Shown piece by piece: positions 8,665 through 59,893 of a stretch of 64,000 nucleotides of DNA; within the stretch, counting starts at the first letter, position 1; every line of letters begins with the position of its first letter. Below the pieces are notes generated by a model. The model was not told where the DNA came from, searched no databases, and saw only the letters and a list, made by a program, of their open reading frames with translations. The stretch is taken from positions 388,420-452,419 of the forward strand of contig NZ_PQSP01000002.1 of the NCBI RefSeq assembly GCF_003991585.1. Reading direction: 5' to 3'. The DNA is from Saezia sanguinis. GTDB taxonomy: Bacteria > Pseudomonadota > Gammaproteobacteria > Burkholderiales > Burkholderiaceae_C. Position numbers and translations under genes: made by a program.

Positions 8665-8670
8665 TAAACT

Positions 8671-11934: not shown

Positions 11935-12098
11935 TGTATGATGGTAAGCATTTATGGAGCGATGACACATGAGCGCAAAACCAGAATATGGGAATTGTGG
12001 CGGAAGGGCATTCCCATGAGTTTGATTGCTTGCGATATAGCAAATCCACTTGATCTGGCTTTGGTCTTGTTGTTGTTTCTTCTGCATCGATACATTCC

Positions 12099-24880: not shown

Positions 24881-24925
24881 AGGTTCAGGTTTGACAAATG
24901 CAGAAGTTTTGGCAAAGCACTTCCG

Positions 24926-25486: not shown

Positions 25487-28400
25487 AGTAATCGCTGGTG
25501 TCGCTGTCTTTCATGGTTTCGATCACCTGTGTGTGTCCCATGAGTGTTGCCAGTTTACGTAAACCATTGGTCAGGTTCACAATGTTTTTCTGTGAGCGCA
25601 GATCTACTTCCAGCTTTTTATCCATCAGCTTCATGACAGGAATAAAGCTCTTCTCCAGTGTGCTTGCCATACCTTGCAGAATTTCGGCCACGCCGGGCTG
25701 GGGCTGGGTCGAAAGGTTCACCGACACATTGGGCGGGGCAGGAGGCTGCTCGAGTTTTTCGAGCTGATCAAAAATCTGCTGCCATGGAATTTGCAGGGGC
25801 GGTGTATCCGGCTTGTTTTCAACAAACTGGGCAAAGCCCTGGAATTCATTGACTAGGTCATTCAACTGAGCCACAACCCGCATGCCGGTATCGGCATCGT
25901 CACCACCCATGGCCTTGATCCGCAGGAAGTCCTGCCTGATCTGCTCCCAGCGTTGCTGTTGTTCTTCGGTCATGCGACCGCGCAGTTCAGAGAGTTTCAG
26001 CAGGTTTTCTTCAGCGCCGGTGGTGAGCAACTGGGCTTCGCCCTGGTAGTGGTCGTTAATGACCTGGGCAATTTCGCCTTCGTTCATGATGGCAGAGATT
26101 TTTTCTGCCATTTTGTTCATGTTGCGGTAGCTGCCCTGCAGTCTGAATGGCGGCTCTGTGCGGTATTTATCGGCCTGTGCAGCGCTGGCAATGTATTGCT
26201 GGTTGACTTTGAGCACCACTTCGCGAATGGTGAACATGCGTTGCAGGGTGCCGACAATTTCATTGATTTCTGCTGCACTGTAGCTGTAGCTGAACTCGTT
26301 GTTGGAAATTTCTTTGCCATCGGCCTTGTCAACAAAGCGGTACACATCGGCCATGTCACGGGTTGCCAAAGGTGCCAGCACGGCATTGGATGTGAGCGAG
26401 TTTTCAATATAGCTCAGTGCAAATGCCTCTTGCATGCCGCCCAGTGTTTCACCCAGGTTATAAATATCGGCACGGTTGGCGAGCATGTCCGGTATTTTGA
26501 ACACTTCGCCTGATTCTGTATAAGGGTTGCCGGCCATGACAACGCAGAACCGGCGCGCGCGCATGTCGTAGGTTTTGGTACGGCCTTTCCATACGCCTTC
26601 GATGCGGCGGGTGCCGTCACACAGTGAAATGAATTTTTGTAAAAACTCCGCATTGGTGTGCTGTATGTCATCGACATACAGCATGACGTTGTTGCCCATT
26701 TCAAGCGCCAGGTTGAGCTTTTCGAGCTCCTGGCGTGATGTGGCGTCAGGTGCCTGGGCCGGGTCCAGTGAGTGAACACGGTGGCCCAATGACGGGCCGT
26801 TGATTTTCATGAAAATCAGCCCCAGCCGGTGCGCCACGTATTCCATCAGCGTGGTTTTGCCATAGCCGGGCGGGGAGATTAGCATCAGCAGGCCCATCAG
26901 GTCAGAGCGTTTGCTCTCCCCGACCGTTCCCATCTGCTTGGCGAGGTTGTCGCCGATAACAGGCAGGTAGACGTCATTGATCAGGCGGTTGCGGACAAAA
27001 GATGTCAGTGGCCTGGGTTTAAACTCCTCCAGCCGCAATGATTCGCGTTCCTGGGCAATGATGTTTTGCCGCAGCAACTGATAGCGGTTCAGTGCCGGCA
27101 GGAATACTTCTGTGTGCTGGCGTACCCGTGCAAAAAAATCATCCACGGATAAATGCATCTGCTGGTTTTCAATGCGCGGGTGTGTACCCATCAGGTCTTT
27201 GACGGTAAAGCGCAGATCCGTTTCGGTAAAGCGCAGCGGGAAGTCTTCGGTCAGCAAAAATAAAACGATGGCTTCCGGAATGTAGCCGGCAATGGCATTC
27301 AGGTTTTGGCTTTCATCAGCCTGACATAAGCCTTGCAGCGCGTTTTCAACCTGCCCCCATTGGGCGTCAGGTCGTTCTCCCAGGCGTTGCAGTGCTTGGC
27401 GGAAGTCATCCCACATGCGCTCGCCCTGCAGGCGCAGTTGCAGGGCGTCCTGCAGTTGTTTGCCGTATTTGCTGAAGGTAAATTCCACACGGTCGGCTGC
27501 CAGAGCCTGCACCAGGTAATCAGCCGCTTCATGTGCGACGGACTGGTCGTAAGAAAGGCCGGTTTTGTCAAACCAGTCCTGTATGGACTGTGCAATTTCC
27601 TGCCGCAACGCAGTGATGCCCTGCGCACGGCCAAACAATAGTTGAATGGATTTGCTGGCGCGTGCGCGTTCTATCCACAAAGCGCTGGCTTCTTCATTGG
27701 CGCGGGTATATTGCCAGAACAGACCGGCCAATGCCCGTGGCAATGGCGAGTAGCGCAGCAACCCGGCACTTTCGGCCAAGGGTAGCAACTGCAAAAGGAG
27801 CAGGGTTGCGTCATGGTCGTGAATGCCTTTTTCGTAGCCTTCTTTGTAACGCGGCGTGGCAAAGTCGCGCACGGTTTTGCCCAGCACATCGGGTTGTGCC
27901 AGCTGGGTTTTGAGCAGGTTCAGTGACAAACCTTCCTGCTGCTGGCTGGCTGCTTTCAGAATTTGCGCCGCCAGATATTCACCGCGGTAAAGCTGCGGGG
28001 TTTCCGATTCGATCGATATTTGCCAGTAATCCCGCAGGTTTTCAAGCTCTGGATTGTTCAGCGGTTCAAAATAGTCGGTACCGGTCAGGTGGATGCATAA
28101 ATGGTTGTCACGCGGCAGCAGGGTCAGGTCCAGCTCCTGCGTATTGACGCTGAAGCGGTGCCTGGGGCCCAGTTTAATGACATTGCCGCCATCTTCAAAC
28201 AGTTCGGTTTTGTCGCGCAATGAGCGCAATGCCTGATCGCGTGCGCTTTTTAAGCGGGCTTCGACGTCATCGGCACGCACACTGTCATGCAGTTCACGCA
28301 GACGGGATACCAGTTCGCGCAGTTTTAAAATCAGAGGATCCGATGCAAAGAATGCATTCATTTCTTCCGGTTTGTTCAGGCGCGCGGTGCGGCGTGGCAA

Positions 28401-30863
28401 TGTATCGAGAATACGGCGGGCGGCATCCTGCACGTTTTGTGCTTTACGCTGACGCTCGTCCAGCAGAGACTGTTTGTGAGACTCAAATGTCTCAAGCACT
28501 TCTTCGCGTTTGGCGAGAATGTCTCCCAGAAATTCTTCATGATCACCGAACTGGCCTTCCAGTTCTTCAAGCTGTACCAGCAGGCGCGATAACTGGTCAT
28601 CGCATTTTTCAGGGTCTTGTGAGAGCGCCAGGGCGTTGACAATGCTCTGGCTGAAAAGGCTGAACTGGGCACCAAACTGCGCTACGGTTTCCGCCGAACC
28701 CAGGCCTTTACGGCGTTGTTCCGCGCGTGCTTTGCTTTGGTTGAGCTTGGCATATACCTCGGAGATGGCCTCGATGATGTGTGTGCGCTGCGTTGCATCT
28801 TCAATCTGGAGTGTGCCCATCAGGCTGGTGAGCATATCCAGGTCATTGGCCATGCTTTGCATGGCTGCCATCGGGATTGACAAGGCGTTGACGGTTTTAG
28901 CCTTCTGTGCCTGTGCGTCCAGTTCCTGCAACTGCGTGGTGAAAGGCAGCAGCGCCGTATCACTGGCTAAAAAGGTGGCGGTGGCTGCTGCCGTGCGCTC
29001 CTGTGCGGCCAGCAGATCGGTTTCCATCTGGTCGATGACAGCGGTATCTATATAGCGGTAGTCACGTATGGTCAGCAGCAGGCCACGCTGAGCGGTAATG
29101 TCGTTCAACGCACCCACATACTGCTGAACGTTGTCCCATCCTTCGGGCAGCAGCAGGTTCAGCAGGTTTTTCTGCTTAGCCTGCGCATCAGCCAGTGCCT
29201 GCGCTGACTGGCTGCGAATGCTTTCAACTTTTTCATATTCGTCCAGCACCATTTCAGCGGTGGCGGTGATTTCGCGCAACAGTGCTGGCAGTTGCTTAAG
29301 CTGCGCATCGCCCAGCCAGTGATAGGCGTCAAACAGGCGGCGTACATGCTGGCACAGCATGGAGTAACGTTGCACAGAGACGGAAGGGGAGGCAATTTCA
29401 CGGCAGAGTTCGTAAAAGTCAGAAATACCACGAACCAGTTCTGCATTACCTACCCGGCCAAAGAAACCGTTACGGGCCGGCTGGCGTGCAGCGTACTCTT
29501 CAGAGTAAAACGGCGTTTGCCAGATTTGCATCGGGTGGATACGTGTCGGTTCATTGCCTTCAGAGTGGAAAATGACCATGCGGCCGTCTTCCAGCCTGGC
29601 ATAACCGTGTCCCAGAACCGGCGGCTCCAGTTGGCGGCTGATGACGTCGTAGGTGAGCAGAACGGAATTGCCTACTTCCGGGTCGTAAAAAATGTACAGC
29701 ACATCTTCGCCGTTGGGCGAGCGTACAGTGCGTTTGAAGCGCATGCCCAACATGGGGATGTCAAACGTTTTGAATTCGCCGTTTTGCAGATAGTACCCAC
29801 CCGGAAAGATAATGCCATGGTCTTCCGGCAGTTGAATACACGCCAGCCCCAGCGCATCTACGCGTGCGATTTTCTGATTCAGCTTGTTGTAAATGTAATG
29901 GCGCCATTGCTGCTCACGGTAGGGCAGGATTTTAAGCAGCAGCAAAGAGCCCAGTTCGGCAAATTCAACCCGCAGGTCGCCAAGCGCCTGGTTTTCGTCT
30001 TCTACTTTTTCCGTGAAGATAATCTGCCCATCGGGGGTGTTGTTTTCAATTTTGAAGGTGAGTGTGCCGCGCCGTTGTTCAATGAACAGGGTGTTGGCAA
30101 TGTTCATATACAGCCTTCGGGCTGTATCGATGATCATCTCGCGCGTGGTGTGAAGCCATTCAAAATCATAAGGGGCGGGCAGCGCAATATCGCGGTCGCC
30201 CCGGTTATCAATGTACTGAATTTGGCTGCTGTCGCCATTGGCAGGCAGTGCCCAGCGGAATACGCGGATATCGGTGTAGCGCTCGCCGATCTGGAAACTG
30301 GCCAGCAGCTTGTTGTCCCGTACCATCAACTGCAGCAGCTTGGTGTCTTTGTAATAAGTGTAAAGTTCGTTGAAGTCTGCAATGAAGCGTGGATGGGTCA
30401 GAAAGCTGCCTTCAGCCGGGCAGGCCTCTACATCGTAGCCTTCTTCTGTTTCTACCAGGCGATACAGGGAGAATACGTCGGAGATGGCGGTTTCTTTTTT
30501 CAGCCCGATAAATACGTTGTAACCAAACAGCAGAAAATCACCAACGCGGACAATGTCGCGTGCGATGCAGTTGTTTTCGGTGCGGATGCGTACCCGTCCG
30601 ATGACTTCCATGTGGCTGTCGCCAAACTCTTTGAGGCGATGCTCATTGAGTTTTTGCGTGATGTCCTTGAGCCGCAGCCCCTGGTCCTGCAGGCGCCGGT
30701 TAAGTACTTCGTAAGCGCCGCCTTCGGCGACGGCTTTATCCACCATATCCTGAGCATCTGGAGTTTCAGCTGGCATGTCTGTCATGTCGATATTCCTGCA
30801 AGTGAGCTCTTCATACCGGTAGAACAAATGCCGCTTGACTGCAAGCGGCCTGATGAAAGGCAA
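25473..30863 (-). CDS. giant (~1770-1796 aa) uncharacterised protein with a C-terminal MoxR/AAA_5-like ATPase module and a long coiled-coil-rich N-terminal region
   Basis: Walker A LISPPGYGKTTLMEYVA, Walker B NNVMLYVDDIQH, sensor VVMAGNPYTE and Arg-finger region LANRADIYNLGE near aa 1290-1500. Upstream are ~1200 aa of helical/coiled-coil sequence with no recognisable family. The likely true start is ATG at 30785, preceded by AGGAA; the ORF-track start is TTG at 30863. Confidence 0.7.
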   Translation of the reverse strand: MPFIRPLAVKRHLFYRYEELTCRNIDMTDMPAETPDAQDMVDKAVAEGGAYEVLNRRLQDQGLRLKDITQKLNEHRLKEFGDSHMEVIGRVRIRTENNCIARDIVRVGDFLLFGYNVFIGLKKETAISDVFSLYRLVETEEGYDVEACPAEGSFLTHPRFIADFNELYTYYKDTKLLQLMVRDNKLLASFQIGERYTDIRVFRWALPANGDSSQIQYIDNRGDRDIALPAPYDFEWLHTTREMIIDTARRLYMNIANTLFIEQRRGTLTFKIENNTPDGQIIFTEKVEDENQALGDLRVEFAELGSLLLLKILPYREQQWRHYIYNKLNQKIARVDALGLACIQLPEDHGIIFPGGYYLQNGEFKTFDIPMLGMRFKRTVRSPNGEDVLYIFYDPEVGNSVLLTYDVISRQLEPPVLGHGYARLEDGRMVIFHSEGNEPTRIHPMQIWQTPFYSEEYAARQPARNGFFGRVGNAELVRGISDFYELCREIASPSVSVQRYSMLCQHVRRLFDAYHWLGDAQLKQLPALLREITATAEMVLDEYEKVESIRSQSAQALADAQAKQKNLLNLLLPEGWDNVQQYVGALNDITAQRGLLLTIRDYRYIDTAVIDQMETDLLAAQERTAAATATFLASDTALLPFTTQLQELDAQAQKAKTVNALSIPMAAMQSMANDLDMLTSLMGTLQIEDATQRTHIIEAISEVYAKLNQSKARAEQRRKGLGSAETVAQFGAQFSLFSQSIVNALALSQDPEKCDDQLSRLLVQLEELEGQFGDHEEFLGDILAKREEVLETFESHKQSLLDERQRKAQNVQDAARRILDTLPRRTARLNKPEEMNAFFASDPLILKLRELVSRLRELHDSVRADDVEARLKSARDQALRSLRDKTELFEDGGNVIKLGPRHRFSVNTQELDLTLLPRDNHLCIHLTGTDYFEPLNNPELENLRDYWQISIESETPQLYRGEYLAAQILKAASQQQEGLSLNLLKTQLAQPDVLGKTVRDFATPRYKEGYEKGIHDHDATLLLLQLLPLAESAGLLRYSPLPRALAGLFWQYTRANEEASALWIERARASKSIQLLFGRAQGITALRQEIAQSIQDWFDKTGLSYDQSVAHEAADYLVQALAADRVEFTFSKYGKQLQDALQLRLQGERMWDDFRQALQRLGERPDAQWGQVENALQGLCQADESQNLNAIAGYIPEAIVLFLLTEDFPLRFTETDLRFTVKDLMGTHPRIENQQMHLSVDDFFARVRQHTEVFLPALNRYQLLRQNIIAQERESLRLEEFKPRPLTSFVRNRLINDVYLPVIGDNLAKQMGTVGESKRSDLMGLLMLISPPGYGKTTLMEYVAHRLGLIFMKINGPSLGHRVHSLDPAQAPDATSRQELEKLNLALEMGNNVMLYVDDIQHTNAEFLQKFISLCDGTRRIEGVWKGRTKTYDMRARRFCVVMAGNPYTESGEVFKIPDMLANRADIYNLGETLGGMQEAFALSYIENSLTSNAVLAPLATRDMADVYRFVDKADGKEISNNEFSYSYSAAEINEIVGTLQRMFTIREVVLKVNQQYIASAAQADKYRTEPPFRLQGSYRNMNKMAEKISAIMNEGEIAQVINDHYQGEAQLLTTGAEENLLKLSELRGRMTEEQQQRWEQIRQDFLRIKAMGGDDADTGMRVVAQLNDLVNEFQGFAQFVENKPDTPPLQIPWQQIFDQLEKLEQPPAPPNVSVNLSTQPQPGVAEILQGMASTLEKSFIPVMKLMDKKLEVDLRSQKNIVNLTNGLRKLATLMGHTQVIETMKDSDTSDYYDRK

Positions 30864-30970
30864 TGGCCTGTCATATCACTGTCCCGGCATTGGTCGTATC
30901 TATACGCTTTGCTGGCGCGGTGCAGCAGCAAAAGCGTTTGCTTTGTTTGCTGCACCGTGTGCACGGGAGA

Positions 30971-33031
30971 TTACTGGTCTTTGGGTGACACAGGCAGATC
31001 GCCAATGACGCTGCCAGTGTTGCCACCTTTACCACTGAGCAGCCTGGTCAGCAGGTCCTGTACCAGCGGGCTCTTCCCAACCACGCCTTCAATGGATTTG
31101 CCAATGGAAAGAGACTTGGCAAACGCATTGAAATAGTCGCCACCGCCGCCCACCAGTTCAACCTTGGCCTTGGACAGCGCTGCGGCCAGCACTTCGGCCT
31201 GTTCTTTGGCGATTTCTTTGTTGGCAGCAATAGCGGCCATGGCTTCGTCAAAGTCTTTTTCAAGCTGCATGCGGAATTCTTCGTGCGCGCGGGTGTTGTC
31301 GGTAAGGGTGTCCATGGCATGGAATTTCTTGGCCAGACCTTCCGATTCGGAATTGAGGCGGTCCAGCAGTGCCTGTGCTTCTGCGGTGCCCAGTTCTTTC
31401 GTGGCTCTGGCTTTGGCAATACCCAGTTGTTCTTCGCCGCGTGCCTGTGCAAACAGTTTTTCTTCCAGCACTTTGGCTTCAGCCAGACCATCTTTTTCTT
31501 TGGCAGCGGCTTTGGCTTCTATGACACGGGCTTCTGCCATGCCTTTTTCCTGCTCGCCCTTGGCTTCGGCAATGATCAGTTCTGCCTGCACCTTGGCCGT
31601 TGCCAGGCCGTCTTTTTCTTTAGCTGCTGCGGTGACTTCCAGCACACGGGCATCGGCCAGGCCGGGGGCAGCACGTTCAGCTTCCACACCCTGTGCCATA
31701 CGGATCTTGGCTTCGGCCTGCTTGGCGGCTGCTTCCAGTTCAGCCTGAGCCATGGTGTTGATTTCAACGGCTTTGTGTTTGGAACGTTCTTCATCAGCCT
31801 GCGCTTTTTTCACCTGCTGCACCAGTTCCTGTTCAGCAATGGCTTCTGCTTCCAGAATAGCGACCTGTTTGTTCCGGTCGGCCTCGGAGACAACACGTAC
31901 TTCTTTGATGCGCTCTTCTTCCTGAGCTACGGTTTTATCCACAGCGACACGTTCACGAATGACGTTGGCAATGTTTTTGCGTTCTTCTTCAAGTGCCTTT
32001 TCTTTGTCAATGCGTTGCAGTTCCACATCGCGTTCGCGTGCAACAACTTCCAGATCACGGGCACGGGTGACTTTTTCAACTTCAATGACAACGGCACGCT
32101 GGCGGTTTTGTTCGGCAATTTCAACTTCGCGCTGCTGGTTTTGCAGGCGCACGTCAATCTGTTCCTGGGCGGCAATGCGGGCTTCTTCCGAACGCAGGCG
32201 CTGCTGTTCTTTGACCAACTGGGTTTCAGCTTCTTCACGCGCCTGGGTGCTTTCAATTTCACGCTTTTGCTGCGCTTCGGCAACGGCCTGTTGGCGGTCC
32301 AGCGCCAGTGATTTTTCTTTGGCCTCGACGTTTTCTTTCTGTTTGGTCAGCTCTTCATAGCGCTGAATGCGGTTGGTTTCAATGCTTTCTTTGGCTGTGC
32401 GGTCGGTAATTTTACGGATACCTTCGGAATCCATGATGTTGTTGGGATCCAGGAATTCAACTTTAGTTTGCTCCAGGTAGTCAATTGCAACATCTTCCAG
32501 CACATAGCCATTGAGGCCTTCGATGACGATTTTGATTTCGTCGCGGAATTGCAGCCGTTTTTCAAACAGTTCTTCCAGGTTGAATTTTTTCCCGGCGGTT
32601 TTTAATGCTTCGGAAAATTTGGCGTTGAAGAGCTGATCCAGCGCACGGTGGTCAGAGGCACGCTCCACACCAACCGACTGTGCAACCTGCAGCACATCCT
32701 CCGAGGTTTTGTTCACGCGCATATAAAATGAAACGCTGATGTCTGCACGCAGATTGTCTTTACAGATCAGCCCGTCTTTGCCCCGGCGTTCAATTTGCAG
32801 GGTGACCAGGGAGATTTTCATCAATTCCTTGATATGCAGCACAGGGAAGACGAACGACCCGGTAAAACTGACTTTAGGTTGTCTGTGCATCAGACCGTTT
32901 CTGATCAAAGCCGTGCCTTGCGGTACTTTGGTGTAAAAAGCTTTGAGTACTGCAAATATAACCAAAATGAAAACGACAAGAGAGACAAGTACCACCCCAA
33001 TTGTCGTGATGAGCGTGCCAGTAACATTCAT
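30971..33031 (-). CDS. flotillin / SPFH (band-7) family protein with long Glu/Ala/Lys-rich coiled coil (YqiK/FloT-like, 686 aa)
   Basis: N-terminal TM helix plus SPFH domain (FYTKVPQGTALIRNG...ISLVTLQIERRGKDGLICKDNLRADISVSFYMRV). This is followed by an ~350-aa EA-rich coiled coil. Confidence 0.85.
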   Translation of the reverse strand: MNVTGTLITTIGVVLVSLVVFILVIFAVLKAFYTKVPQGTALIRNGLMHRQPKVSFTGSFVFPVLHIKELMKISLVTLQIERRGKDGLICKDNLRADISVSFYMRVNKTSEDVLQVAQSVGVERASDHRALDQLFNAKFSEALKTAGKKFNLEELFEKRLQFRDEIKIVIEGLNGYVLEDVAIDYLEQTKVEFLDPNNIMDSEGIRKITDRTAKESIETNRIQRYEELTKQKENVEAKEKSLALDRQQAVAEAQQKREIESTQAREEAETQLVKEQQRLRSEEARIAAQEQIDVRLQNQQREVEIAEQNRQRAVVIEVEKVTRARDLEVVARERDVELQRIDKEKALEEERKNIANVIRERVAVDKTVAQEEERIKEVRVVSEADRNKQVAILEAEAIAEQELVQQVKKAQADEERSKHKAVEINTMAQAELEAAAKQAEAKIRMAQGVEAERAAPGLADARVLEVTAAAKEKDGLATAKVQAELIIAEAKGEQEKGMAEARVIEAKAAAKEKDGLAEAKVLEEKLFAQARGEEQLGIAKARATKELGTAEAQALLDRLNSESEGLAKKFHAMDTLTDNTRAHEEFRMQLEKDFDEAMAAIAANKEIAKEQAEVLAAALSKAKVELVGGGGDYFNAFAKSLSIGKSIEGVVGKSPLVQDLLTRLLSGKGGNTGSVIGDLPVSPKDQ

Positions 33032-36881: not shown

Positions 36882-38897
36882 ATGGACATGTTTGGCAAAT
36901 TAAGTTTAGAGGCAATTCCTCTGCATGAACCCATCATCATGGTGGTGATGGGGTTTGTGATTTTAGGCGGTATTGCTGTAATGGGGCTGATGACTTATTA
37001 CGGCAAGTGGGGCTGGCTGTGGAAGAACTGGCTGACCACCACCGACCATAAAAAAATCGGTGTCATGTACTGTATTGTGGCGATTCTGATGCTGGTGCGG
37101 GGCTTTGCCGATGCCATCATGATGCGGGCCCAGCAGGCCATGGGGTATGCGGCAGCCAGTGCGCCCGATCCGGGTTATCTGCCGGCACACCATTACGACC
37201 AGATTTTTACCGCGCATGGCGTGATCATGATCTTTTTCATGGCAATGGCCTTGCTGACCGGGTTGATGAACCTGATTGTGCCGTTGCAGATCGGCGCGCG
37301 CGATGTGGCGTTCCCATTTCTGAATAACCTGAGCTTTTGGCTGCTTTGCTCGGGCGTGGTGTTGATCATGGTGTCGATGTTTATCGGTGAATATGCCAAA
37401 ACCGGCTGGCTGGCGTATCCGCCGCAGTCGGGGCTGGAGTTCAGCCCGGATGTGGGGGTGGACTATTACATCTGGGGGCTGCAGTTATCGGGGCTGGGGT
37501 CGTTGCTGACCGGGGTGAACTTCCTGGTGACGATTTTCAAATGCCGCACCCCCGGCATGAAGCTGATGCAAATGCCGATCTTCACCTGGACGGTGCTGAT
37601 TGCCTCGCTGATGATTGTGGCAACGTTCCCGATGCTGACGGTATCTTTACTGCTGCTGAGTCTGGACCGTTATCTGGACATGCACTTTTTCACCAATGCA
37701 GGTGGCGGCGACCCGATGCTGTATGTGAACATGATCTGGACCTGGGGCCACCCGGAAGTCTATATTTTGGTGCTACCGGCGTTTGGTATCTACTCGGAAG
37801 TGGTGGCCACGTTTGCCCGCAAAGCATTGTTTGGCTATAAGACCATGGTGTGGGCAACGGTGTCGATTGCGGTGCTGTCCACCGTGGTGTGGGTGCACCA
37901 TTTCTTCACCATGGGCGCTGGGGCCAACGTCAATGCGTTCTTTGGCATCATGACGATGATCATTGCCGTGCCAACCGGTGTAAAGATGTTCAACTGGCTG
38001 TTCACCATGTATCGCGGACGTATCCGGTTTTCGGTACCGATGCTGTGGACCATTGGTTTTCTGGTGACATTTGCCATTGGCGGCATGACCGGCGTGCTGA
38101 TGGCGGTGCCGCCGGCAGATTTCCTGGTGCACAACAGCCTGTTCCTGGTGGCGCACTTTCATAACACCATCATTGGCGGCGTTGTGTTTGGCTACCTGGC
38201 GGGTGTGGTGTACTGGTTCCCGAAAGCGTTTGGTTTCAAACTCAGTGAAAAATGGGGCAAGCGCGCATTCTGGTTCTGGCTGACAGGTTTTTATGTGGCC
38301 TTCATGCCGCTGTATGTGCTGGGCTTCATGGGCATGACGCGGCGTCTGTACCGCTACGATAACCCGGACTGGCAGTTGCCGCTGATCATTGCCTCCATTG
38401 GGGCCGTGCTGATTCTGCTGGGCATTGTGTGTACGGTGCTGTCTATTCTGGTGGGTATTTTGGAGCGCAAGAAAAATCTGGATCTCACGGGCGATCCTTG
38501 GGATGGGCGTACGTTGGAGTGGGCAACCTCTTCACCACCACCGGTGTATAACTTTGCCAAACTGCCCGAAGTGCACGGACTGGACCAGTTCTGGGAAGAC
38601 AAACAAAAAGGCAAGGTGCACCAGTTCAGTGAGCATTATGAACCGATTCACATGCCGCGCAATACCGGCGTGGGCCTGATCATCGGGCTGGTGTTGGGTA
38701 CGGCATTTGGTTTTGCGATGACCTGGCATATCTGGTGGCTGGCGATTGTGGGGCTGGCGGGCATGATCATTTCATATGTGGTGCATACGTTCAATACCGA
38801 TACAGACTACTACATTCCCGCAGACGAAGTGGCCCGTACAGAGAAGGCATTCCAGGAAAAACTGGCGCAGGCCGAACAGCAGGGCATAAAGGTATAA
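36882..38897 (+). CDS. cyoB: cytochrome bo3 ubiquinol oxidase subunit I
   Basis: 671-aa polytopic haem-copper oxidase subunit I ([27 protein letters not shown]). Confidence 0.95.
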
Positions 38898-41687: not shown

Positions 41688-44462
41688 CTACCAGCCATAG
41701 CGGCGAATGTAAATGCCTTTAAGCGCCTGGGTTAAAAGCATGTAACCCAGCAGGATCAGTGGCAGAAAAACGAAATACAGCGGCGGCAGTGCCTGCAGCT
41801 TGAGGTAGCTGGCCAGCGGCCCCATCGGCAGCCAGATGCCAACTGCCATGATGACAGCGGTCATGGTGAGCAGTGGCACAGCGGCACGGCTTTGGATAAA
41901 AGGTATTTTGGGTGTGCGGATCATGTGCACGATCAAAGTCTGTGTGAGCAGCCCGACGACAAACCAGCCTGACTGGAAAAGTGATTGGTTTTCCGGTGTA
42001 TTGGCTGCAAAAACAAACCACATCATGGCAAAGGTCAGGATGTCGAAAATAGAGCTGATCGGCCCGAAAAAGATCATGAAACGCCCGATTTCTGCGGGCT
42101 TCCAGTGCTGCGGTTTTTTCAGCAGTTCTTCATCCACGTTGTCAAATGGAATAGCTGCCTGCGAGGTGTCGTACAGCAGGTTCTGAATGAGCAGGTGAAT
42201 CGGCAGCATCGGCAGGAACGGAATAAAGGCGCTGGCAACCAGCACGGAAAATACATTGCCGAAATTGGAGCTGGCAGTCATCTTGATGTATTTGAGCAGG
42301 TTGGAGAATGTACGGCGGCCTTCGCGCACGCCTTCTTCCAGCACCATCAGGCTTTTTTCGAGCATGATGATGTCTGCCGCTTCTTTGGCAATGTCTACGC
42401 CGGTGTCTACCGAAATGCCAATGTCTGCCGTGCGCAGTGCGGCGGCATCGTTGATGCCGTCTCCCATAAAACCGACGACGTGTCCGTTTTCTTTCAGCAA
42501 ACGGACAATGCGGGCTTTATGCGATGGTGTCAGGCGCGCAAATACAGTGGTTTTTTCGACCAGCCTGGACAGTTGTGCATCGTCAAGACGCTCAATGACG
42601 GAGCCGCACAGGATATCTTCAGCGTTAAACTGCAGGCCGACATCGTGACAGACTTTTTCAGCCACCAGTTCATTATCCCCGGTGAGTACCTTCACGGTAA
42701 TGCCATGCTCGGTCAGTGCCCTGATGGCCTGGACCGCGCTGTCTTTGGGCGGATCGAGAAATGCCAGGTAACCTTCCAGCACCATGTCTTTCTCATCGAT
42801 CCGGCTGTAGGTATCCTGCCATTCGCGGGTAGTTTTGGTGGCAACAGCAACCACGCGCATGCCTTCTTCATTCAGGTCTGCGCAGGTCTGCCTGATGTTC
42901 CAGAGTGTCTGCTCATCAAGTGCGGTGGTGACGCCATTGTGCCGAATGTTTGTGCAGACGGCCAGAATTTCTTCGACGGCCCCTTTGGTGATGAGCAGGT
43001 GGGCGTCATCCGGCGTCTGTACCACAACGGTCATACGGCGGCGCTCAAAGTCAAACGGGATTTCGTCAACTTTCTGGTATGCCATTCGGGTGTCTTCGGC
43101 TTGGACGGTTTGTCCGTGCTCAAGCACTGCCACATCCAGCAGGTTTTTCAGGCCACTTTGGTAATAGCTGTTCAGGTAGGCCAGTTGCAGCGTATATTCA
43201 CAGGGGTTGCCATTGACATCCAGGTGCCGTTCAAGCACGATTTTGTCCTGGGTCAGTGTTCCGGTTTTATCGGTGCACAGCACATCCATTGCGCCGAAAT
43301 TCTGAATGGCATCCAGCCGTTTGACAATGACTTTCTTGCGTGACATGGTGACCGCACCTTTGGCCAGTGTGGCGGTGGCAACCATCGGCAGCATTTCGGG
43401 CGTTAATCCTACCGCAACAGACAGGGCGAACAGCAGTGCCTCCACCCAGTCGCCTTTGGTAAAGCCGTTAATGAACAGCACCAGAGGAACCATGACCAGC
43501 ATGAAGCGGATCAACAGCCAACTGACTTTGTTGACGCCGATCTGAAAAGATGTGGGAGCACGGTCGGTTGCCGTGACCCTTTGGGCAAGCTCGCCAAAAT
43601 AGGTCCGGTCTCCGGTGGACAGAACAATGGCTCTGGCAGTCCCCGAGACTACGTTGGTACCCATGAATACAATGTTGCTCAGTTCCAGCGGGTTCAGGGT
43701 CAGGGCATTGGTCAGGTGATCATACTTTTCCACCGGCATGGATTCGCCTGTCATCGCGGCCTGGGCAACAAACAGATCTTTTGTGCTCAATAGCCGGCAA
43801 TCTGCAGGGACCATGTCACCGGCAGAAAGGGCAATGATATCGCCGGGAACCAGCTCCCGTATTGGGACTTCCTGCTGCAAAGCCATGGATCCCAGGCTCA
43901 GGGGTGTTTGTGAAGAGGTGGTTTCTTCTTGCTGCTGTTGCTGGCGTATCACGGTCGCGGTATTGCTGACCATGGCTTTCAGCTTATCTGCAGCTTTGTT
44001 GGCGCGTGCCTCCTGCACAAAGCGCAGCCACGTTGAAAGTGCAACCATGGTGGCGATGATGACGGTTGCCGTCATGTCGTCCGTGAGAAACGAAATGATG
44101 GCCAGCAGCGTCAGCAGCAGATTAAAAGGGTTGCGATACGATAGCCACAGATGTGTCCACCAGGGCAATGGCTTGTCATGCTCGACTTCGTTCAGGCCAA
44201 ACTGTTCCCTGAGTTGGGTTACCTGGGTTTGGGACAGTCCCTGCTGACCCGACCCGTATTGCTGCAACAGGCTATCTTTATTGCTGGCCGCGACGGATTG
44301 GAGTTTTTGGCTCAGACCGGCCGGGACCTCGCGGTTCAGCCCGGTTTTAGGCAATGTGTCCAGAATCAGCAGCCGGCGGAAGTGGCGCACAATGCGGCGC
44401 GGGAATACACTGAGGATAAATCTTTTCATTTTCATGGGTGTGCCCTCCTGTGTCCGATACAA
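41688..44462 (-). CDS. mgtA: Mg2+-importing P-type ATPase
   Basis: CTDKTGTLT phosphorylation motif, MGDGINDAAAL and TGES. The N-terminus aligns with E. coli MgtA. The true start is probably the downstream MKMKRF ATG. Confidence 0.9.
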   Translation of the reverse strand: MYRTQEGTPMKMKRFILSVFPRRIVRHFRRLLILDTLPKTGLNREVPAGLSQKLQSVAASNKDSLLQQYGSGQQGLSQTQVTQLREQFGLNEVEHDKPLPWWTHLWLSYRNPFNLLLTLLAIISFLTDDMTATVIIATMVALSTWLRFVQEARANKAADKLKAMVSNTATVIRQQQQQEETTSSQTPLSLGSMALQQEVPIRELVPGDIIALSAGDMVPADCRLLSTKDLFVAQAAMTGESMPVEKYDHLTNALTLNPLELSNIVFMGTNVVSGTARAIVLSTGDRTYFGELAQRVTATDRAPTSFQIGVNKVSWLLIRFMLVMVPLVLFINGFTKGDWVEALLFALSVAVGLTPEMLPMVATATLAKGAVTMSRKKVIVKRLDAIQNFGAMDVLCTDKTGTLTQDKIVLERHLDVNGNPCEYTLQLAYLNSYYQSGLKNLLDVAVLEHGQTVQAEDTRMAYQKVDEIPFDFERRRMTVVVQTPDDAHLLITKGAVEEILAVCTNIRHNGVTTALDEQTLWNIRQTCADLNEEGMRVVAVATKTTREWQDTYSRIDEKDMVLEGYLAFLDPPKDSAVQAIRALTEHGITVKVLTGDNELVAEKVCHDVGLQFNAEDILCGSVIERLDDAQLSRLVEKTTVFARLTPSHKARIVRLLKENGHVVGFMGDGINDAAALRTADIGISVDTGVDIAKEAADIIMLEKSLMVLEEGVREGRRTFSNLLKYIKMTASSNFGNVFSVLVASAFIPFLPMLPIHLLIQNLLYDTSQAAIPFDNVDEELLKKPQHWKPAEIGRFMIFFGPISSIFDILTFAMMWFVFAANTPENQSLFQSGWFVVGLLTQTLIVHMIRTPKIPFIQSRAAVPLLTMTAVIMAVGIWLPMGPLASYLKLQALPPLYFVFLPLILLGYMLLTQALKGIYIRRYGW

Positions 44463-51539: not shown

Positions 51540-53786
51540 GTGGTGATGACTGTAATCTGGCGCAGGTGTATGCGCCTACTGATCTTAGGCGGGCTGTGGC
51601 TGGCACTGTATGCGGGTGCACAGGCTGCGCTGCCGTGGGATGCTGCGCCACGAAACCAGTCTGTTGTACAGACAGACCATGTGCGGGCCGAGTTGCTGGT
51701 GTATGCCCCGCAGGGGATAGAGCCGGGGGCTACCGTGTGGCTGGGGCTGAAAATGGCACACCAGCCGCAATGGCATACCTACTGGGATAATCCGGGCGAT
51801 ACGGGGCTGCCGACCAGCCTGACGTGGCAATTGCCAGCCGGCGTGACTGCTGGTGATGTGCAGTGGCCAGCGCCCAAGCAGCTTCCTATTCAAGAGGGGC
51901 TGGTGAACTATGGCTATGACGGTACGGTATTGCTGCCGGTACAACTGGCGATAGGGCCTGAATTTCAGGGTTCACAACTGGATATCAGCCTGCGCGCAGA
52001 GTGGCTGGCATGCCGTGTCGAGTGCATCCCGGAGAGCGGGGATTTTCGCCTGGCCGTTCCGGTGCAACAGTCCACCATCTCCGAGATTGGTATTTTCGAG
52101 TCGACCTGGGAAAACATCCCGCAAACGGATGATGCGGTTACCGCGCAGGCACACGTCAGCATGGAGCCCGGTGCAGGCACATTGCAATGGCGTATTCAGG
52201 GGCTGCCTGAATCCATGCAGAGGCGCGATCTGTTGCTGTTCCCGCAGCAAGGTGGGGTAATGGCCAATTCCGGCCCGCTCAGCAGCCATTGGGAAGGGGA
52301 TGTGTGGACGGCTGTTTATCCCCTGCTTGAGCAAAGGCTGGAAAGCCCGGACAGCATGCGTGCGGTGCTGACAGTCGCAGTGGCTGATCAGGAAACGACC
52401 GTCTCGTCAAAGACACCTGCCCTGTGGATTGAAGCGCAGGTGCAAGGTCAGTGGCCGGCCGAATGGCAGCCCAGCGGTATTCCGCCTGCGTTGCAGGCCG
52501 GTATTGATGCAGACCGCGCGGCGGCTCAGGCACAGGCACCTGGCGCAGCCATGGGTACATCGTCATGGCTGGGCGCATTGCTGTTGGCGTTTGCCGGCGG
52601 GTTGTTGCTGAACCTGATGCCATGTGTGTTTCCGGTGCTCTCGATCAAAGCGCTGACGTTTGCCCAATCGGGCGGGCATACACGCGGCATGCACATTGCC
52701 ACCGGGCTGGCTTATGGGCTGGGTGTTGTTATTACCATGTTAATTCTGGCTGGTGTCATGCTGGCATTGCGCGCAACGGGTTCGGGGCTGGGCTGGGGGT
52801 TTCAGTTGCAGTCGCCGGTGTTTGTGGCGCTGCTGGCGGTGCTGTTTACGCTGATCGGCCTGAACCTGCTGGGTGTTTTTCAGGTATTAACGGTATTGCC
52901 GGGCCGCATCAGCGACATCAGAGGCAAGACGCCTTCGGTGGATGCGTTTTTTTCCGGCATTGTGTCGGTGCTGATTGCCACCCCTTGTACCGCGCCATTC
53001 ATGGGGGCGGCGCTGGGGGTTGCCCTGGTGCTGCCGGCATGGCAGGCGCTGAGCATTTTTCTGGCCTTGGGCATTGGTCTGGCTCTGCCGCTGATGCTGC
53101 TGGCCTGTATGCCTGCACTGGCACAGTGGCTGCCTAAACCAGGCGCGTGGATGGAAACCTTCCGCAGGTTCATGGCATTTCCGATGCTGGCCACAGTGCT
53201 GTGGCTGGTGTGGGTGATTGGCCTGCAAACCAGTGTGGACGGTGCTGTCGGGTTGCTGGCTATTTTGCTGGCACTGGCTTTGCTGATGTGGGTGTGGGGC
53301 TGGAGCCAGCAACACCGTGCACAAACGCAGGGCCGTAGCTGGCGCAGAATTGCGGTGGCATTGAGTGTATTGCTGTTGGCGGGGGTGACTTTCTGGGCAG
53401 CTCCCTCCTGGCGTGCGGTGTCTGTCGCTGCGCCAGCAGCAGTCAGTAGCGGTTGGCAGCCCTGGTCGGTTGAGCGGGTGCAGCAATTGCAGGCACAAGG
53501 CCAGCCGGTGTTCATTGACTTCACAGCAGCATGGTGCATGACCTGTCAGGTTAATAAGCGCACAACGTTAACCCAGCCCGATGTGTTGAAGGCGTTTGCC
53601 GATAAGGGTGTGGTTTTGTTGCAGGCGGACTGGACACGCCCCGATCCCGCCATTGCGGCCGAGTTGCAGCGCTTGGGGCGCAGCGGCCTGCCGGTTTATG
53701 TGCTGCTGGTGCCGGGACAGGCGCCGCAGTTGCTGCCGGAAGTGCTGACGCCCGGTATTGTTTACCAGGCGCTGGATACCATTTAA
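51540..53786 (+). CDS. dsbD: thiol:disulfide interchange protein DsbD
   Basis: N-terminal periplasmic domain, a central 8-TM domain with FAGGLLLNLMPCVFPVLSIK, and a C-terminal thioredoxin WCMTCQ. Confidence 0.9.
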   Translation: MVMTVIWRRCMRLLILGGLWLALYAGAQAALPWDAAPRNQSVVQTDHVRAELLVYAPQGIEPGATVWLGLKMAHQPQWHTYWDNPGDTGLPTSLTWQLPAGVTAGDVQWPAPKQLPIQEGLVNYGYDGTVLLPVQLAIGPEFQGSQLDISLRAEWLACRVECIPESGDFRLAVPVQQSTISEIGIFESTWENIPQTDDAVTAQAHVSMEPGAGTLQWRIQGLPESMQRRDLLLFPQQGGVMANSGPLSSHWEGDVWTAVYPLLEQRLESPDSMRAVLTVAVADQETTVSSKTPALWIEAQVQGQWPAEWQPSGIPPALQAGIDADRAAAQAQAPGAAMGTSSWLGALLLAFAGGLLLNLMPCVFPVLSIKALTFAQSGGHTRGMHIATGLAYGLGVVITMLILAGVMLALRATGSGLGWGFQLQSPVFVALLAVLFTLIGLNLLGVFQVLTVLPGRISDIRGKTPSVDAFFSGIVSVLIATPCTAPFMGAALGVALVLPAWQALSIFLALGIGLALPLMLLACMPALAQWLPKPGAWMETFRRFMAFPMLATVLWLVWVIGLQTSVDGAVGLLAILLALALLMWVWGWSQQHRAQTQGRSWRRIAVALSVLLLAGVTFWAAPSWRAVSVAAPAAVSSGWQPWSVERVQQLQAQGQPVFIDFTAAWCMTCQVNKRTTLTQPDVLKAFADKGVVLLQADWTRPDPAIAAELQRLGRSGLPVYVLLVPGQAPQLLPEVLTPGIVYQALDTI

Positions 53787-57606: not shown

Positions 57607-57639
57607 AACATGCCGCATTTTTATGCGGCATGTTTTTTA
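57607..57639 (+). terminator. rho-independent terminator after the DEAD-box helicase gene
   Basis: ACATGCCGCAtttttATGCGGCATGTtttttat is a perfect 11-bp stem followed by a T-run. Confidence 0.75.
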
Positions 57640-57837
57640 TGTGCAATCAATGTGTTGCTTGGAAAAGGCGGCAAATGTTTTGCCCGGTGCATTAGTCTGT
57701 GCCGGATAAAGGATTGAAGCATAACTTTTCCCTGGGGGGTAATTACAAAACCAGTGTCTTTTCCTGGCAGATTGGCTGCCATAGGGAGTGTATGGCTATA
57801 TACTGCATATGCGCGAACATGAACCATCAGGTAAAGG

Positions 57838-58836
57838 ATGCACATGGGAGGTTTTTTTGATAACTTCATTGCAAATATGTATGGCCCCCACTTTTTGGTT
57901 TTTTATCTTTTCTGGATAATCGCCATTTCTGTGCTGACATGGTTTGCCGTCAAAAAACTTTCACAGGTTTACTTTCAACCGGTTTTGCTTTCAGGGAATG
58001 TCAACCCGTATGAAGTGGCGACCTTGCGGGGAATTGACAGCCTGTTAAGTGTGATTGTTTTCAGACTGCTGCATCTGGGTTTCCTGATGCCTGTATCAGA
58101 TCAGCCGCAGGAGCTGGTTAAAAACTTCAATAAGAGTGAACAGCATAAACAGGCACTTTCGGAGTTGGAAAGAAAGTTGCTCAAACACTTTCGCACGCCT
58201 TCGGCGATGACCACTGCGCGCGAGCATGTACAGCCGGCGTTTTTTCATAATCTGCGGCTGCTACAAAATGACAGCCTGATGGTTTCTGCCGGCAATATGT
58301 ACCTGATACGTTTTTTTGCCTGGTTTGGTTTTGCCGCTATTTTAGGCATAGGTTTTTACAAACTGGTTGCAGCGCTGACAACCGGGCATGACAACGTTAT
58401 TTTTCTATGCATCATGATGTTGGTGAGCGGCATCATTTATTACAAAATGGTACTGAGCAGAAAAGGTGGCTTTCTGCACCAGCAGAGGGCGTTACTGACC
58501 AATAAAGGCATCAGCCTGATCAAACACCTGATGCGTACATTGGGGGTGCTCAGAAAAGATAAACAGGCACTTGAGAAGGTGGTGCAGCATAAGGATGAAA
58601 ATACCCTGCTGCTGATGTTTGCGTTGTTTGGTCTTGCTGCCATAGATATTGCCCAGGTGCGTGAGTATTCACCATTGTTTCCTAAAGAGATGTTGTTTCC
58701 TTATGCGATAGGCACATTGTCTGCAGCGAATGCACGTGCAGTCTCAACCGGGGGGTGTGGCGGCGGGGTCGGATGCAGTGGCGGTGGGAGTGGATGCGGC
58801 AGCGGTTGCGGCGGTGGATGTGGTGGCTGTGGCTGA
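57838..58836 (+). CDS. polytopic membrane protein with C-terminal Gly/Cys-rich tail (TIGR04222-like, radical-SAM-partnered)
   Basis: Several TM helices. The extreme C-terminus is GGCGGGVGCSGGGSGCGSGCGGGCGGCG. A radical-SAM/SPASM gene lies immediately downstream. Confidence 0.65.
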   Translation: MHMGGFFDNFIANMYGPHFLVFYLFWIIAISVLTWFAVKKLSQVYFQPVLLSGNVNPYEVATLRGIDSLLSVIVFRLLHLGFLMPVSDQPQELVKNFNKSEQHKQALSELERKLLKHFRTPSAMTTAREHVQPAFFHNLRLLQNDSLMVSAGNMYLIRFFAWFGFAAILGIGFYKLVAALTTGHDNVIFLCIMMLVSGIIYYKMVLSRKGGFLHQQRALLTNKGISLIKHLMRTLGVLRKDKQALEKVVQHKDENTLLLMFALFGLAAIDIAQVREYSPLFPKEMLFPYAIGTLSAANARAVSTGGCGGGVGCSGGGSGCGSGCGGGCGGCG

Positions 58837-58864
58837 TACGCATGCAAATGTTTCTGATGCGGGT

Positions 58865-59893
58865 ATGAGGTATCGCCCTCAAAGGTTGACCGTGCAGTGG
58901 CACATCACGGACCGCTGCAATCTGCGTTGTCACCATTGCTATCAGGACAGTTATACGCATGCAGGGCAAGATCTAAAAACACTGCAAGCCATTGCAACAC
59001 AGGTGTTTGCGTTGCATGAGGAATGGGAAGAAAGTGGAGCCAGAATTCCTCTGAGTTTTACCATTACAGGCGGTGAACCCTGTGTGCATCCTGCATTCAG
59101 AGAGTTGTTGTGCTTTTTGTCTGCTTACCCAAGCAAACCTGCATTGGGCATTTTAAGTAACGGCAGTCTGATTGATACCGGGCTGGCGCAGTTTTTTTCA
59201 CGCCTTCCGGTGGCGTATGTCCAGCTCAGTGTGGATGGCAAGCCTGCCACGCATGATTTGATTCGCGGGCAGGGGCATTTTGAGCAAGTGATTCAAGCGA
59301 CTCAGATTTTGCGTCAGGCTGATGTTCGTGTTGTCTGGTCTTTTACGGCGCATCAGGGTAATTTTCATGAGTTTGCCGAAGTGGTGCGCTTGGCCAGAAA
59401 GCACAAAGTCAGTCGTATCTGGTCGGACCGGATGATTCCTTCTGGTGGTGACAATGGGCTCAAGGCCTTGAATGCTAAGCAGACTTCGCAGTATCTGATG
59501 CATATGCGGCAGGCATGGGGTGAAGCGTCCAGGCCAAGACACAACGTGACAGAGGTTGCCTTACACCGTGCGCTGCAGTTTCAGGCGCAGGGAAATGGTC
59601 CTTACCACTGCAAGGCAGGCGAGGAACTGGTGACGATTATGCCCGATGGAACGTTGTATCCGTGCCGGCGGCTTCCGGTCAGCGTAGGCAATGTATTGCA
59701 TACACCGCTGAAAACGCTTTATGACATGCCTTTGATGCAGGACCTGAGGGATTTTGAAGGGCCGCAGTCATGTAACCCCTGTGTCTATAAAAGCCTGTGT
59801 AAGGGAGGGCTCAGGTGCCTGGCCCATGCCGTCAATGGCGATATGTTCAGTGCCGATCCGGGTTGCCAGGCGCTGCAAAGGCTACTTCACTGA
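58865..59893 (+). CDS. radical SAM protein with C-terminal SPASM-type Cys cluster (peptide/protein-modifying maturase-like)
   Basis: CNLRCHHCY is the CxxxCxxC radical-SAM motif. The C-terminus has CRRLP...CNPCVYKSLCKGGLRC...C. Start taken at MRYRPQRL; the ORF-track start at 58730 overlaps the upstream gene. Confidence 0.8.
   Translation: MRYRPQRLTVQWHITDRCNLRCHHCYQDSYTHAGQDLKTLQAIATQVFALHEEWEESGARIPLSFTITGGEPCVHPAFRELLCFLSAYPSKPALGILSNGSLIDTGLAQFFSRLPVAYVQLSVDGKPATHDLIRGQGHFEQVIQATQILRQADVRVVWSFTAHQGNFHEFAEVVRLARKHKVSRIWSDRMIPSGGDNGLKALNAKQTSQYLMHMRQAWGEASRPRHNVTEVALHRALQFQAQGNGPYHCKAGEELVTIMPDGTLYPCRRLPVSVGNVLHTPLKTLYDMPLMQDLRDFEGPQSCNPCVYKSLCKGGLRCLAHAVNGDMFSADPGCQALQRLLH

Follow-up and report, generated by a model that had tools for sequence, protein, structure and literature searches.

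What does a radical S-adenosylmethionine (SAM) enzyme do next to a membrane protein that ends in little but glycine and cysteine? The question is raised by a two-gene unit of Saezia sanguinis, located in a 64,000-nucleotide stretch of contig NZ_PQSP01000002.1 (hereafter the window, meaning that whole stretch). The unit comprises the open reading frame (ORF) of a membrane protein (57838–58836, forward strand) followed by that of a radical SAM/SPASM enzyme (58730–59893, forward strand). We found that the pairing of such enzymes with Gly/Cys-tailed neighbours is conserved and specific, beyond chance, and that the tail is very probably what the enzyme acts on. In the best reading of the locus, to which we give about even chances, the enzyme is a dedicated O2-independent maturase that puts Cys-derived heterocycles on the membrane-tethered tail. 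The features of the pair are as follows.

57838–58836, forward: gene of the polytopic membrane protein (TIGR04222 family); 332 aa when read from the first ATG, 330 aa from 57844
57895–57951, forward: first transmembrane segment, residues 20–38, hydropathy 2.36; helix 16–42 in the AlphaFold2 model
57952–58299, forward: soluble region, residues 39–154, with the motif NPYEVATLRG; predicted cytoplasmic, helix/beta-hairpin units
58300–58452, forward: hairpin of transmembrane segment 2, loop and segment 3, residues 155–205, with the conserved motif YKL..A...GH.NV.FL
58603–58659, forward: fourth hydrophobic segment, residues 256–274, Kyte–Doolittle value 2.04 (family mean 1.39)
58750–58833, forward: coding region of the 28-residue tail, the proposed substrate; disordered, six Gly-Cys units, ending GCGGCG, which is invariant in the family
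58865–59893, forward: radical SAM/SPASM gene, 342 aa from ATG 58865 in an ORF open from 58730; no N-terminal RiPP recognition element (RRE; RiPP, ribosomally synthesised and post-translationally modified peptide)
58916–58939, forward: CX3CX2C cluster motif (C18/C22/C25), invariant in 20 family members
59609–59866, forward: SPASM region with Cys C249, C267, C303, C306, C312, C318 and C334, all seven invariant in 20 members

The membrane protein scored 59.8 bits against a cut-off of 43 with the curated NCBIfam model of TIGR04222, over profile positions 1–227 of 229, which bears out the family proposed in an initial annotation of this DNA; the RefSeq entry for the identical protein is also named TIGR04222 domain-containing. 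A Pfam scan of the protein gave no family reaching E 0.01, and a PDB sequence search with it gave no match. Its annotation as a polytopic protein of 332 aa held in that hydropathy delineates four hydrophobic segments (residues 20–38, 155–178, 187–205 and 256–274), the length being that from the first ATG. Judged by sequence identity, the true start is likely the second ATG at 57844: the resulting 330-aa protein is 100% identical to WP_162615265.1 (CUZ56_01254) of Saezia sanguinis.

The last 28 residues of the protein (GGCGGGVGCSGGGSGCGSGCGGGCGGCG) consist of Gly, Cys, Ser and Val only, as first described, in the proportions G18, C6, S3 and V1; the count of eight Cys given at that time was too high, since the tail contains six and the whole protein seven. 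As is typical of TIGR04222 tails, it is a C-terminal low-complexity Gly/Ser region with Cys that follows the transmembrane segments, and residues 293–332 are disordered in the AlphaFold2 model (predicted local distance difference test, pLDDT, below 50 in the tail). All six Cys follow a Gly and three of the six stand in GGCG. The relatives share these traits. A word-indexed homology search with the membrane protein returned 401 relatives, and nearly all of the best 120, which we used for a tail survey, end in ...CGGGCGGCG(G). GCGGC is invariant in a 28-sequence alignment, and the 721 tail Cys of the 120 homologues are preceded by Gly in 71% of cases and followed by Gly in 81%, GGCG being the commonest Cys quadruplet (327/721).

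Because shared tail words could bias that search, we used a tail-less query (residues 1–301) for a second one, a phmmer search of 1.84 billion cluster representatives that gave 422 matches at E ≤ 1e-3. At least two Cys occurred within the last 30 residues in 133 of the best 143 matches and CGGC within the last 14 residues in 118 of the 143; the ten exceptions were mostly truncated fragments. The conservation of the tail spans phyla at the protein level, and near and distant relatives alike keep it whole, whereas its absence or a frameshift in close relatives had been named as grounds for abandoning the idea. Two trivial explanations were rejected. A slippage-prone microsatellite or annotation artefact does not fit the tail DNA, which has weak repeats only and mixed Gly and Cys codons, or the cross-phylum protein conservation. 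A sorting signal of the MYXO-CTERM/GlyGly-CTERM type does not fit a protein that ends ...CGGCG, with no hydrophobic helix or basic cluster after the motif.

The next gene encodes, as annotated, a radical SAM enzyme with a SPASM-type Cys cluster. It scored 57.8 bits with PF04055 (cut-off 29.5), with matches to a partial TIM-barrel fold, and 33.4 bits with PF13186, the SPASM domain (cut-off 21.5). The seven SPASM Cys are expected to hold two auxiliary [4Fe-4S] clusters. The gene likely starts at ATG 58865, where the N-termini of 20 family members align. The preceding stretch of the ORF (58730–58864) consists of the Gly/Cys tail codons of the upstream gene read in an alternative frame, and the RefSeq and GenBank models of the enzyme (385 or 369 aa), which begin within that tail-coding region, are probably too long, because the homologues align at ATG 58865. 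The enzyme begins 17 residues before its CX3CX2C motif, which leaves no room for an RRE domain.

Is the adjacency of the two genes more than coincidence? We scanned genome and metagenome collections with an alignment of the radical SAM enzymes and studied 160 loci among the matches listed (26–48% enzyme identity, about 1.2 Mb). The closest relatives (Saezia metagenome-assembled genomes, Pragia and Chania) stand outside this sample and were covered by exact-protein look-ups. Tailed ORFs were recognised by the tail alone, independently of family, as those with at least 3 Cys and at least 14 Gly plus Ser in the last 25 residues, and adjacency was counted where each flank of the locus was at least 1 kb long. 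The initial annotation had named neighbourhood conservation as a check, and the pairing passed it, an adjacent tailed ORF being found as follows.

Enzyme identity at least 42%: 9/10 loci
Enzyme identity 35–42%: 12/16 loci
Enzyme identity 30–35%: 4/38 loci
Enzyme identity below 30%: 0/44 loci

All 32 tailed ORFs in the 160 scanned loci adjoin the enzyme gene (32/32) and none lies elsewhere in those loci; most end 0–100 nt upstream of the enzyme gene on the same strand. A hidden Markov model (HMM) of TIGR04222, built without the tails, matched the gene beside the enzyme at L001–L008, L014, L025 and L091–L094, that is, at all loci with at least 42% enzyme identity save L045. There (L045:5748–7038, on a contig binned as Methanophagales) the radical SAM enzyme is 42% identical and has no tailed neighbour; a 71-aa remnant of an accessory gene lies upstream, between the enzyme gene and a recQ-like gene, and the locus may be decayed or a binning artefact. 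At two other loci (L003:7024–8952, reverse strand, and L089:3941–6692), two tandem TIGR04222 paralogues, each with a Cys-Gly tail, accompany one enzyme gene. The pair also moves as a unit between genomic contexts. One relative, whose enzyme is 67% identical, has it flanked by an RNase T-family gene and a gene for a Lon-substrate-binding domain, and in the Budviciaceae it occupies yet another context. The enzyme type itself occurs in Enterobacterales, Syntrophobacteraceae, Anaerolineales, Thiotrichaceae and Firmicutes.

The case for the tail as substrate is strongest at the distant loci. Most enzymes at 31–40% identity belong to strict anaerobes (Ruminococcus, Oscillospiraceae, Lachnospiraceae and Erysipelotrichaceae), and their tailed neighbours, of 285–720 aa, are DUF2207, TPM-domain, zinc-ribbon or unclassified proteins with no TIGR04222 domain. 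Their tails read (CSS)n...CGGGGAD, ...GGSSSF or CGGGGSW, and all that the tailed neighbours have in common is a tail of CxxC repeats set among Gly and Ser. In anaerobic Firmicutes and others, genes of DUF2207, TPM-domain, zinc-ribbon and unclassified proteins with (CSS)n or (CGG)n tails stand immediately next to related radical SAM/SPASM genes at L009, L011–L018, L021–L024, L027, L029, L031, L041, L043, L095 and L097. Because unrelated carriers share the tail and nothing else, the tail is likely the substrate, as had been suggested at the outset, and these loci look like a much wider tail-maturation system. We found no other candidate substrate gene, protease or transporter conserved in the related loci. 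A hunt for small Cys-rich precursor ORFs beside distant radical SAM genes gave noise only, the neighbours being large tailed proteins. One small ORF downstream of a distant enzyme (L026:7347–7490; 33% identity, Thermoplasmatota) ends ...GGRFCLQCSSCHGCK; it may encode a Cys-rich precursor peptide of the conventional kind.

How does this pairing relate to the partner already proposed for TIGR04222 proteins? The TIGR04222/radical SAM arrangement given in the initial annotation is conserved in related loci, but the partner known from the literature is a multinuclear iron-dependent oxidative enzyme of the non-haem type (MNIO, DUF692). The one substantive source on the family, a 2025 survey (Microb Genom, PMC12452194), describes TIGR04222 proteins, most of them from Actinomycetota, as putative MNIO/DUF692 substrates, proposes only subsets of them as such, counts 490 of 1,372 TIGR04222-bearing genomes without any MNIO gene, and places the MNIOs beside TIGR04222 close to the bufferin/oxazolin enzymes. 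Its text and the supplements available to us make no mention of a radical SAM partner, and no paper describing the pairing was found in the literature searched.

Among seven sampled distant TIGR04222 homologues with CGGGCGGCG-type tails, six have an MNIO neighbour and one has the present radical SAM enzyme. The MNIO gene is next door or three genes away at P0007, P0010, P0041, P0093, P0104 and P0109; at P0016 and P0106 the radical SAM gene stands beside TIGR04222 instead. The one MNIO-type example of this sample that carries a source name is from Pyrinomonadaceae. At four of the six MNIO-type loci an SCO6045_C protein is encoded downstream (the Pfam hit being confident at three and faint at one), and none is on record in the other two. 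An HMM built from the six MNIO neighbours (PF05114) found no MNIO ORF in the window or in any radical SAM-type locus. Since MNIO is the literature partner and neighbours six of the seven sampled homologues, the radical SAM pairing is a minority alternative.

The two locus types are alike in their substrate family, in their CGGGCGGCG-type tails and in the position of the enzyme gene immediately downstream. They differ in that the Saezia enzyme belongs to the radical SAM/SPASM proteins, has no relation to MNIO and is independent of O2, and in that its locus lacks a PME-type 2/SCO6045_C partner gene. Both types may also contain a nucleotidyltransferase-like accessory gene (about 245–300 aa, with weak similarity to ANT/MntA), which is optional and absent from the Saezia window. 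It was found at these positions.

Radical SAM-type loci: L003:8937–9674 (reverse), L004:3173–3982, L005:2554–3459, L007:7848–8594 (reverse), L091:3–671
MNIO-type loci: L088:3235–3993 and L089:4973–5749 (homology E 7e-51 and 3e-37)

In a neighbour-joining tree of the TIGR04222 domain, the two types are intermixed (for instance L007 with L088, and P0106 with L084). Read most simply, this is a single system whose two non-homologous enzymes have taken each other's place on several occasions, and the radical SAM and MNIO enzymes are probably functional analogues. Two points count against leaning on this too firmly: the tree is drawn without support values and the sample of partner types amounts to a dozen look-ups. 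The distribution of the two enzymes fits a division by oxygen availability, though not a strict one.

What would the enzyme do to the tail? Its top NCBIfam match is the radical SAM enzyme of the ACGX system (TIGR04340), with 138 bits against a cut-off of 400 and residues 3–337 of a 341-residue profile matched. Over 20 members of the clade, the best curated families are SbtM (TIGR04082, E 3.6e-50) and then ACGX (E 1.2e-47), and the same two lead for four of five sampled tail-associated enzymes of distant loci (L009, L013, L021 and L041; three Firmicutes and one Zixiibacteriota). For the fifth, L018, TIGR04053 is best and ACGX second. The ACGX enzyme resembles ours in length and in having no RRE, and is linked by name to a Cys-Gly repeat peptide; membership in that system was rejected on the low score and on the neighbour, a 332-aa membrane protein rather than a small repeat peptide. 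We know of no characterised ACGX product. Membership in the PqqE, MftC, NirJ and AhbD families was likewise rejected, the scores being far below the cut-offs.

SbtM is a radical SAM/SPASM enzyme (SbtM/SbtMa; PMC9204691, PMC11002830) whose target is the Cys or Sec of a conserved GG(U/C)G motif, matched by the GGCG of the Saezia tail, and it makes a thio(seleno)oxazole by ring formation through the carbonyl of the preceding Gly; the product is lighter by 4 Da, absorbs at 304 nm and retains alkylation (PMC9204691). The author of that work likened the first step to the thiol oxidation by the anaerobic sulfatase-maturating enzyme (anSME). Thiooxazoles are also the product in bufferins/oxazolins (Buf1, Buf2, Buf_EGKCG; PMC11626156), where BufB/BufC convert Cys, often in a Cys-Gly context, for copper chelation, in the cytoplasm and before export; those of Buf1 bind copper very tightly (PMC11626156). 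Unlike the tethered Saezia protein, bufferins carry Sec signal peptides, are peptides or proteins soluble in the periplasm and are made by an MNIO with a DUF2063 partner, and copper binding by the Saezia tail is suggested only by analogy with them. The structural evidence points in the same direction: the AlphaFold2 model of the enzyme (pLDDT 85) matches the folds of anSME, PqqE and SuiB, and its best global superposition is on anSME (TM-score 0.76–0.78). Like anSME (PDB 4K36–4K39), it has a full SPASM domain and no RRE, and the Cys that it would act on belongs to a whole protein. It differs from anSME in being tied to a single adjacent substrate gene, which anSME usually is not, and in facing a tail without a sulfatase motif.

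Because SbtM and ACGX lead the scores, the tail is rich in GGCG, the model is anSME-like and the MNIOs of the parallel system are bufferin-like, we favour multiple conversions of Cys to 5-thiooxazole. The first gene would produce a TIGR04222 inner-membrane protein whose disordered C-terminal tail carries six Gly-Cys units, and the second a cytoplasmic, anSME-shaped, RRE-less radical SAM/SPASM maturase of that tail, which would fill the role of the O2-dependent MNIO found beside most TIGR04222 genes with no need for O2. A 5'-deoxyadenosyl radical would take the C-beta hydrogen of a Cys whose thiolate is held by an auxiliary cluster; the oxidised Cys would cyclise onto the carbonyl of the preceding Gly, and a second oxidation would complete the 5-thiooxazole with a loss of 4 Da per Cys, in the manner of SbtM on GG(C/U)G. 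Such conversions at successive Cys of the tail could yield a membrane-tethered chelator of a soft metal, probably copper. The thiooxazole chemistry, which leans on the SbtM and bufferin analogies, is plausible at somewhat less than even chances, and a metal-binding role of the tail is rather unlikely. Whatever its product, the system fits the label RiPP-like loosely: a RiPP cluster comprises a precursor with leader and core and releases its product by protease or exporter, whereas this locus consists of the two genes alone, bounded by the terminator-like hairpin on one side and the convergent apaH on the other. With leader peptide, protease and exporter all missing from it, modification of a whole protein is the more apt description.

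On which side of the membrane would the tail be modified? The loop between the third transmembrane segment and the fourth hydrophobic segment has a net charge of +3.9 and the N-terminus one of −1 (121 family members). By the positive-inside rule, this loop should be cytoplasmic, as should the soluble regions of the protein. In the AlphaFold2 model (pLDDT 82), segment 256–274 forms only short helices. The tail of TIGR04222 proteins has been predicted to be periplasmic (PMC12452194); here it would be so only if segment 256–274 crosses the membrane, and modification would then be required before translocation. The enzyme must act in the cytoplasm whichever the side, on a resident tail or before translocation.

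This possible need for modification before translocation is one of several points that weigh against a maturase making heterocycles. The enzyme reaches none of the curated NCBIfam cut-offs, and the margins of SbtM and ACGX over NirJ, AhbD and TIGR04053 are modest. With the SbtM model it scores 123.6 bits against 350, matching only positions 196–514 of 516, so that it is not a member and lacks the N-terminal extension of about 195 residues; moreover, SbtM acts on a small selenopeptide of Geobacter and Desulfobacteria, compared with a many-site polytopic membrane protein here. The product of the MNIO-type TIGR04222 systems, from which the analogy is drawn, is uncharacterised (PMC12452194). No metal-homeostasis gene adjoins the unit, its neighbours being lysS, rhlE, apaH and a Nudix gene. 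The division by oxygen is not strict, because Saezia itself encodes a haem-copper oxidase (subunit I at window 36882–38897, forward strand) and can respire O2; a P-type cation ATPase gene is also present (window 41688–44462, reverse strand). Finally, the thioether synthase SkfB is the best PDB sequence match of the enzyme (E 6e-14), ahead of CteB, and the best match of its model by Foldseek E-value, with TigE and SuiB also high.

These last matches favour thioether crosslinks, one of the chemistries put forward in the initial annotation, in which the same enzyme would join Cys sulfur to the alpha or beta carbon of Gly or Ser in sactionine- or ranthionine-type links and so knot the tail. A full SPASM domain is typical of thioether synthases, and SkfB, AlbA, CteB, PapB and SCIFF enzymes are indeed radical SAM/SPASM or twitch enzymes acting on Cys-rich ribosomal substrates. 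However, they have RRE domains, leader peptides and short secreted substrates, none of which fits an RRE-less enzyme in a locus without leader peptide, and membership among the sactipeptide or ranthipeptide synthases was rejected on scores that all fall under those of SbtM and ACGX (AlbA 55 against 850, SkfB 65 against 300, StsB 70 against 625, PapB 89 against 340). The acceptors would be restricted to Gly or Ser, and no thioethers are reported for the analogous MNIO partner. Such crosslinks are possible but unlikely, and the evidence leans to Cys oxidation of the SbtM/anSME type. Within the latter, the product could be other than a heterocycle: an anSME-like conversion of Cys to formylglycine, an epimerisation or an as yet unseen modification. 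The anSME fold and the precedent of RRE-less action on whole proteins speak for this, as does the thioaldehyde-type intermediate that SbtM is thought to share (PMC9204691). Yet the anSME model (TIGR03942) gives 68.3 bits against 349, the tail contains no Pro, no Arg and no C/S-x-P/A-x-R motif, and its invariant Gly-Cys context suits ring closure on a Gly carbonyl; anSME membership itself was rejected on the score and the missing motif, and we consider such alternative oxidations quite unlikely.

Could the tail be a partner rather than a substrate? Unmodified CX3CX2C or CGGC thiols might bind a metal or Fe-S cluster or relay redox equivalents, with the membrane protein serving as anchor, chaperone or electron/cluster partner and the enzyme acting on a target elsewhere. 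The terminal CGGGCGGC has CX3CX2C spacing and CGGC is a CxxC motif, the N-terminal domain and transmembrane core are conserved in their own right, and over a quarter of TIGR04222 proteins have no C-proximal Cys (PMC12452194). Against it stand the unrelated DUF2207, TPM and zinc-ribbon carriers that share the tail alone, the non-homologous, peptide-modifying MNIO that occupies the same position by the same tails, and the want of any other conserved candidate substrate gene; we regard this explanation as improbable. That the two genes are neighbours by chance, the enzyme being a housekeeping radical SAM protein and the tail mere low-complexity sequence, would agree with the housekeeping character of all flanking genes and with automatic annotations of the enzyme as PqqE-like or AlbA-like. 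It is effectively refuted: adjacency tracks enzyme similarity, tailed ORFs never lie away from the enzyme, the pair is portable, the tail is conserved across phyla, and no housekeeping family cut-off is reached, including that of the sulfatase maturases, whose membership had been named as fatal to the idea of a dedicated partner. A heterocycle-forming tail maturase remains the reading that we prefer.

The surroundings of the pair in the window suggest that it is expressed by itself. Two features precede it.

57607–57634, forward: terminator-like hairpin after rhlE, 12-bp stem then T run, from a consensus scan; upstream boundary of the unit
57776–57804, forward: sigma-70-like promoter candidate, CTGCCA-17-TATACT, about 35 nt before the start codons; weak

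The promoter is a weak candidate because the consensus scan returned as many promoter-like sites as expected from shuffled sequence. Profile searches identified the flanking genes as housekeeping genes (lysS, rhlE, apaH and the Nudix gene); apaH is convergent with the enzyme gene and overlaps its 3' end by 12 nt, and its product is identical to the ApaH of Saezia sanguinis. Since a strong terminator-like hairpin, a weak promoter-like site and a spacer of 28 nt between the membrane protein gene and ATG 58865 delimit and join the two genes, they probably form their own operon, and they look like a separate, self-contained one. A plasmid search with the enzyme gave no match at E 1e-30 or better. 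A gene for the thiol:disulfide interchange protein DsbD (window 51540–53786, forward strand) lies about 4 kb upstream, and we judge its proximity coincidental because the pair occupies other contexts in relatives.

Elsewhere in the window, a 2,689-aa ORF (595–8664, forward strand) contains haemagglutinin repeats together with a secretion domain of the TPS type and, at the C-terminus, a BURPS668_1122-type deaminase toxin domain, and looks like a CdiA-like contact-dependent toxin. A low-GC island follows (8001–12000; 0.38–0.41 against about 0.55 around it) with an 807-aa ORF (9274–11697, forward strand) that joins SIR2-like and STAND NTPase domains in a defence-system-like architecture. A block of large genes on the reverse strand (21527–33031) specifies a 1,117-aa AAA_11/AAA_12 helicase, a 1,796-aa DUF3686 ATPase that also carries DUF7902 and AAA_5 domains, and a 686-aa protein for which Pfam gave no match; a tRNA gene adjoins it (21332–21402, reverse strand), and the block may be a mobile or defence island.

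What does the pair mean for the families involved? Gly-rich tails occur on TIGR04222, DUF2207 and TPM proteins that bacteria contain very commonly and for which no function is known. Some of the TIGR04222-bearing genomes that lack MNIO genes could be explained by a dedicated radical SAM/SPASM partner, and on the strength of the pairing the same modified tail is predicted to be reached by a second route, independent of O2. SbtM-like chemistry would also extend from one rare selenopeptide to substrates that are abundant membrane proteins. Culturable Enterobacterales (Pragia, Citrobacter and Leminorella) carry the system, as does Saezia, and the prediction is directly testable because it involves only two genes and culturable hosts; a candidate synthetic substrate peptide for the enzyme is GSGCGSGCGGGCGGCG. 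Should the tethered product chelate a soft metal such as copper, it would represent a novel type of metal defence or sensor at the membrane.

More tentatively, we propose that unrelated membrane proteins (TIGR04222, DUF2207, TPM and others) share a widespread, undescribed class of tail maturation, which would turn their C-terminal CxxC-repeat Gly/Ser tails into poly-heterocyclic metal-binding or redox tethers, such as poly-thiooxazoles, by a radical SAM enzyme where O2 is scarce and by an MNIO where O2 is at hand. That one modification may be made by either an O2-independent or an O2-dependent enzyme has a precedent in anSME and the formylglycine-generating enzyme. If such a class is real, it would parallel that pair and offer an initial lead on what the Gly-rich tails of DUF2207, TPM and TIGR04222 proteins do.

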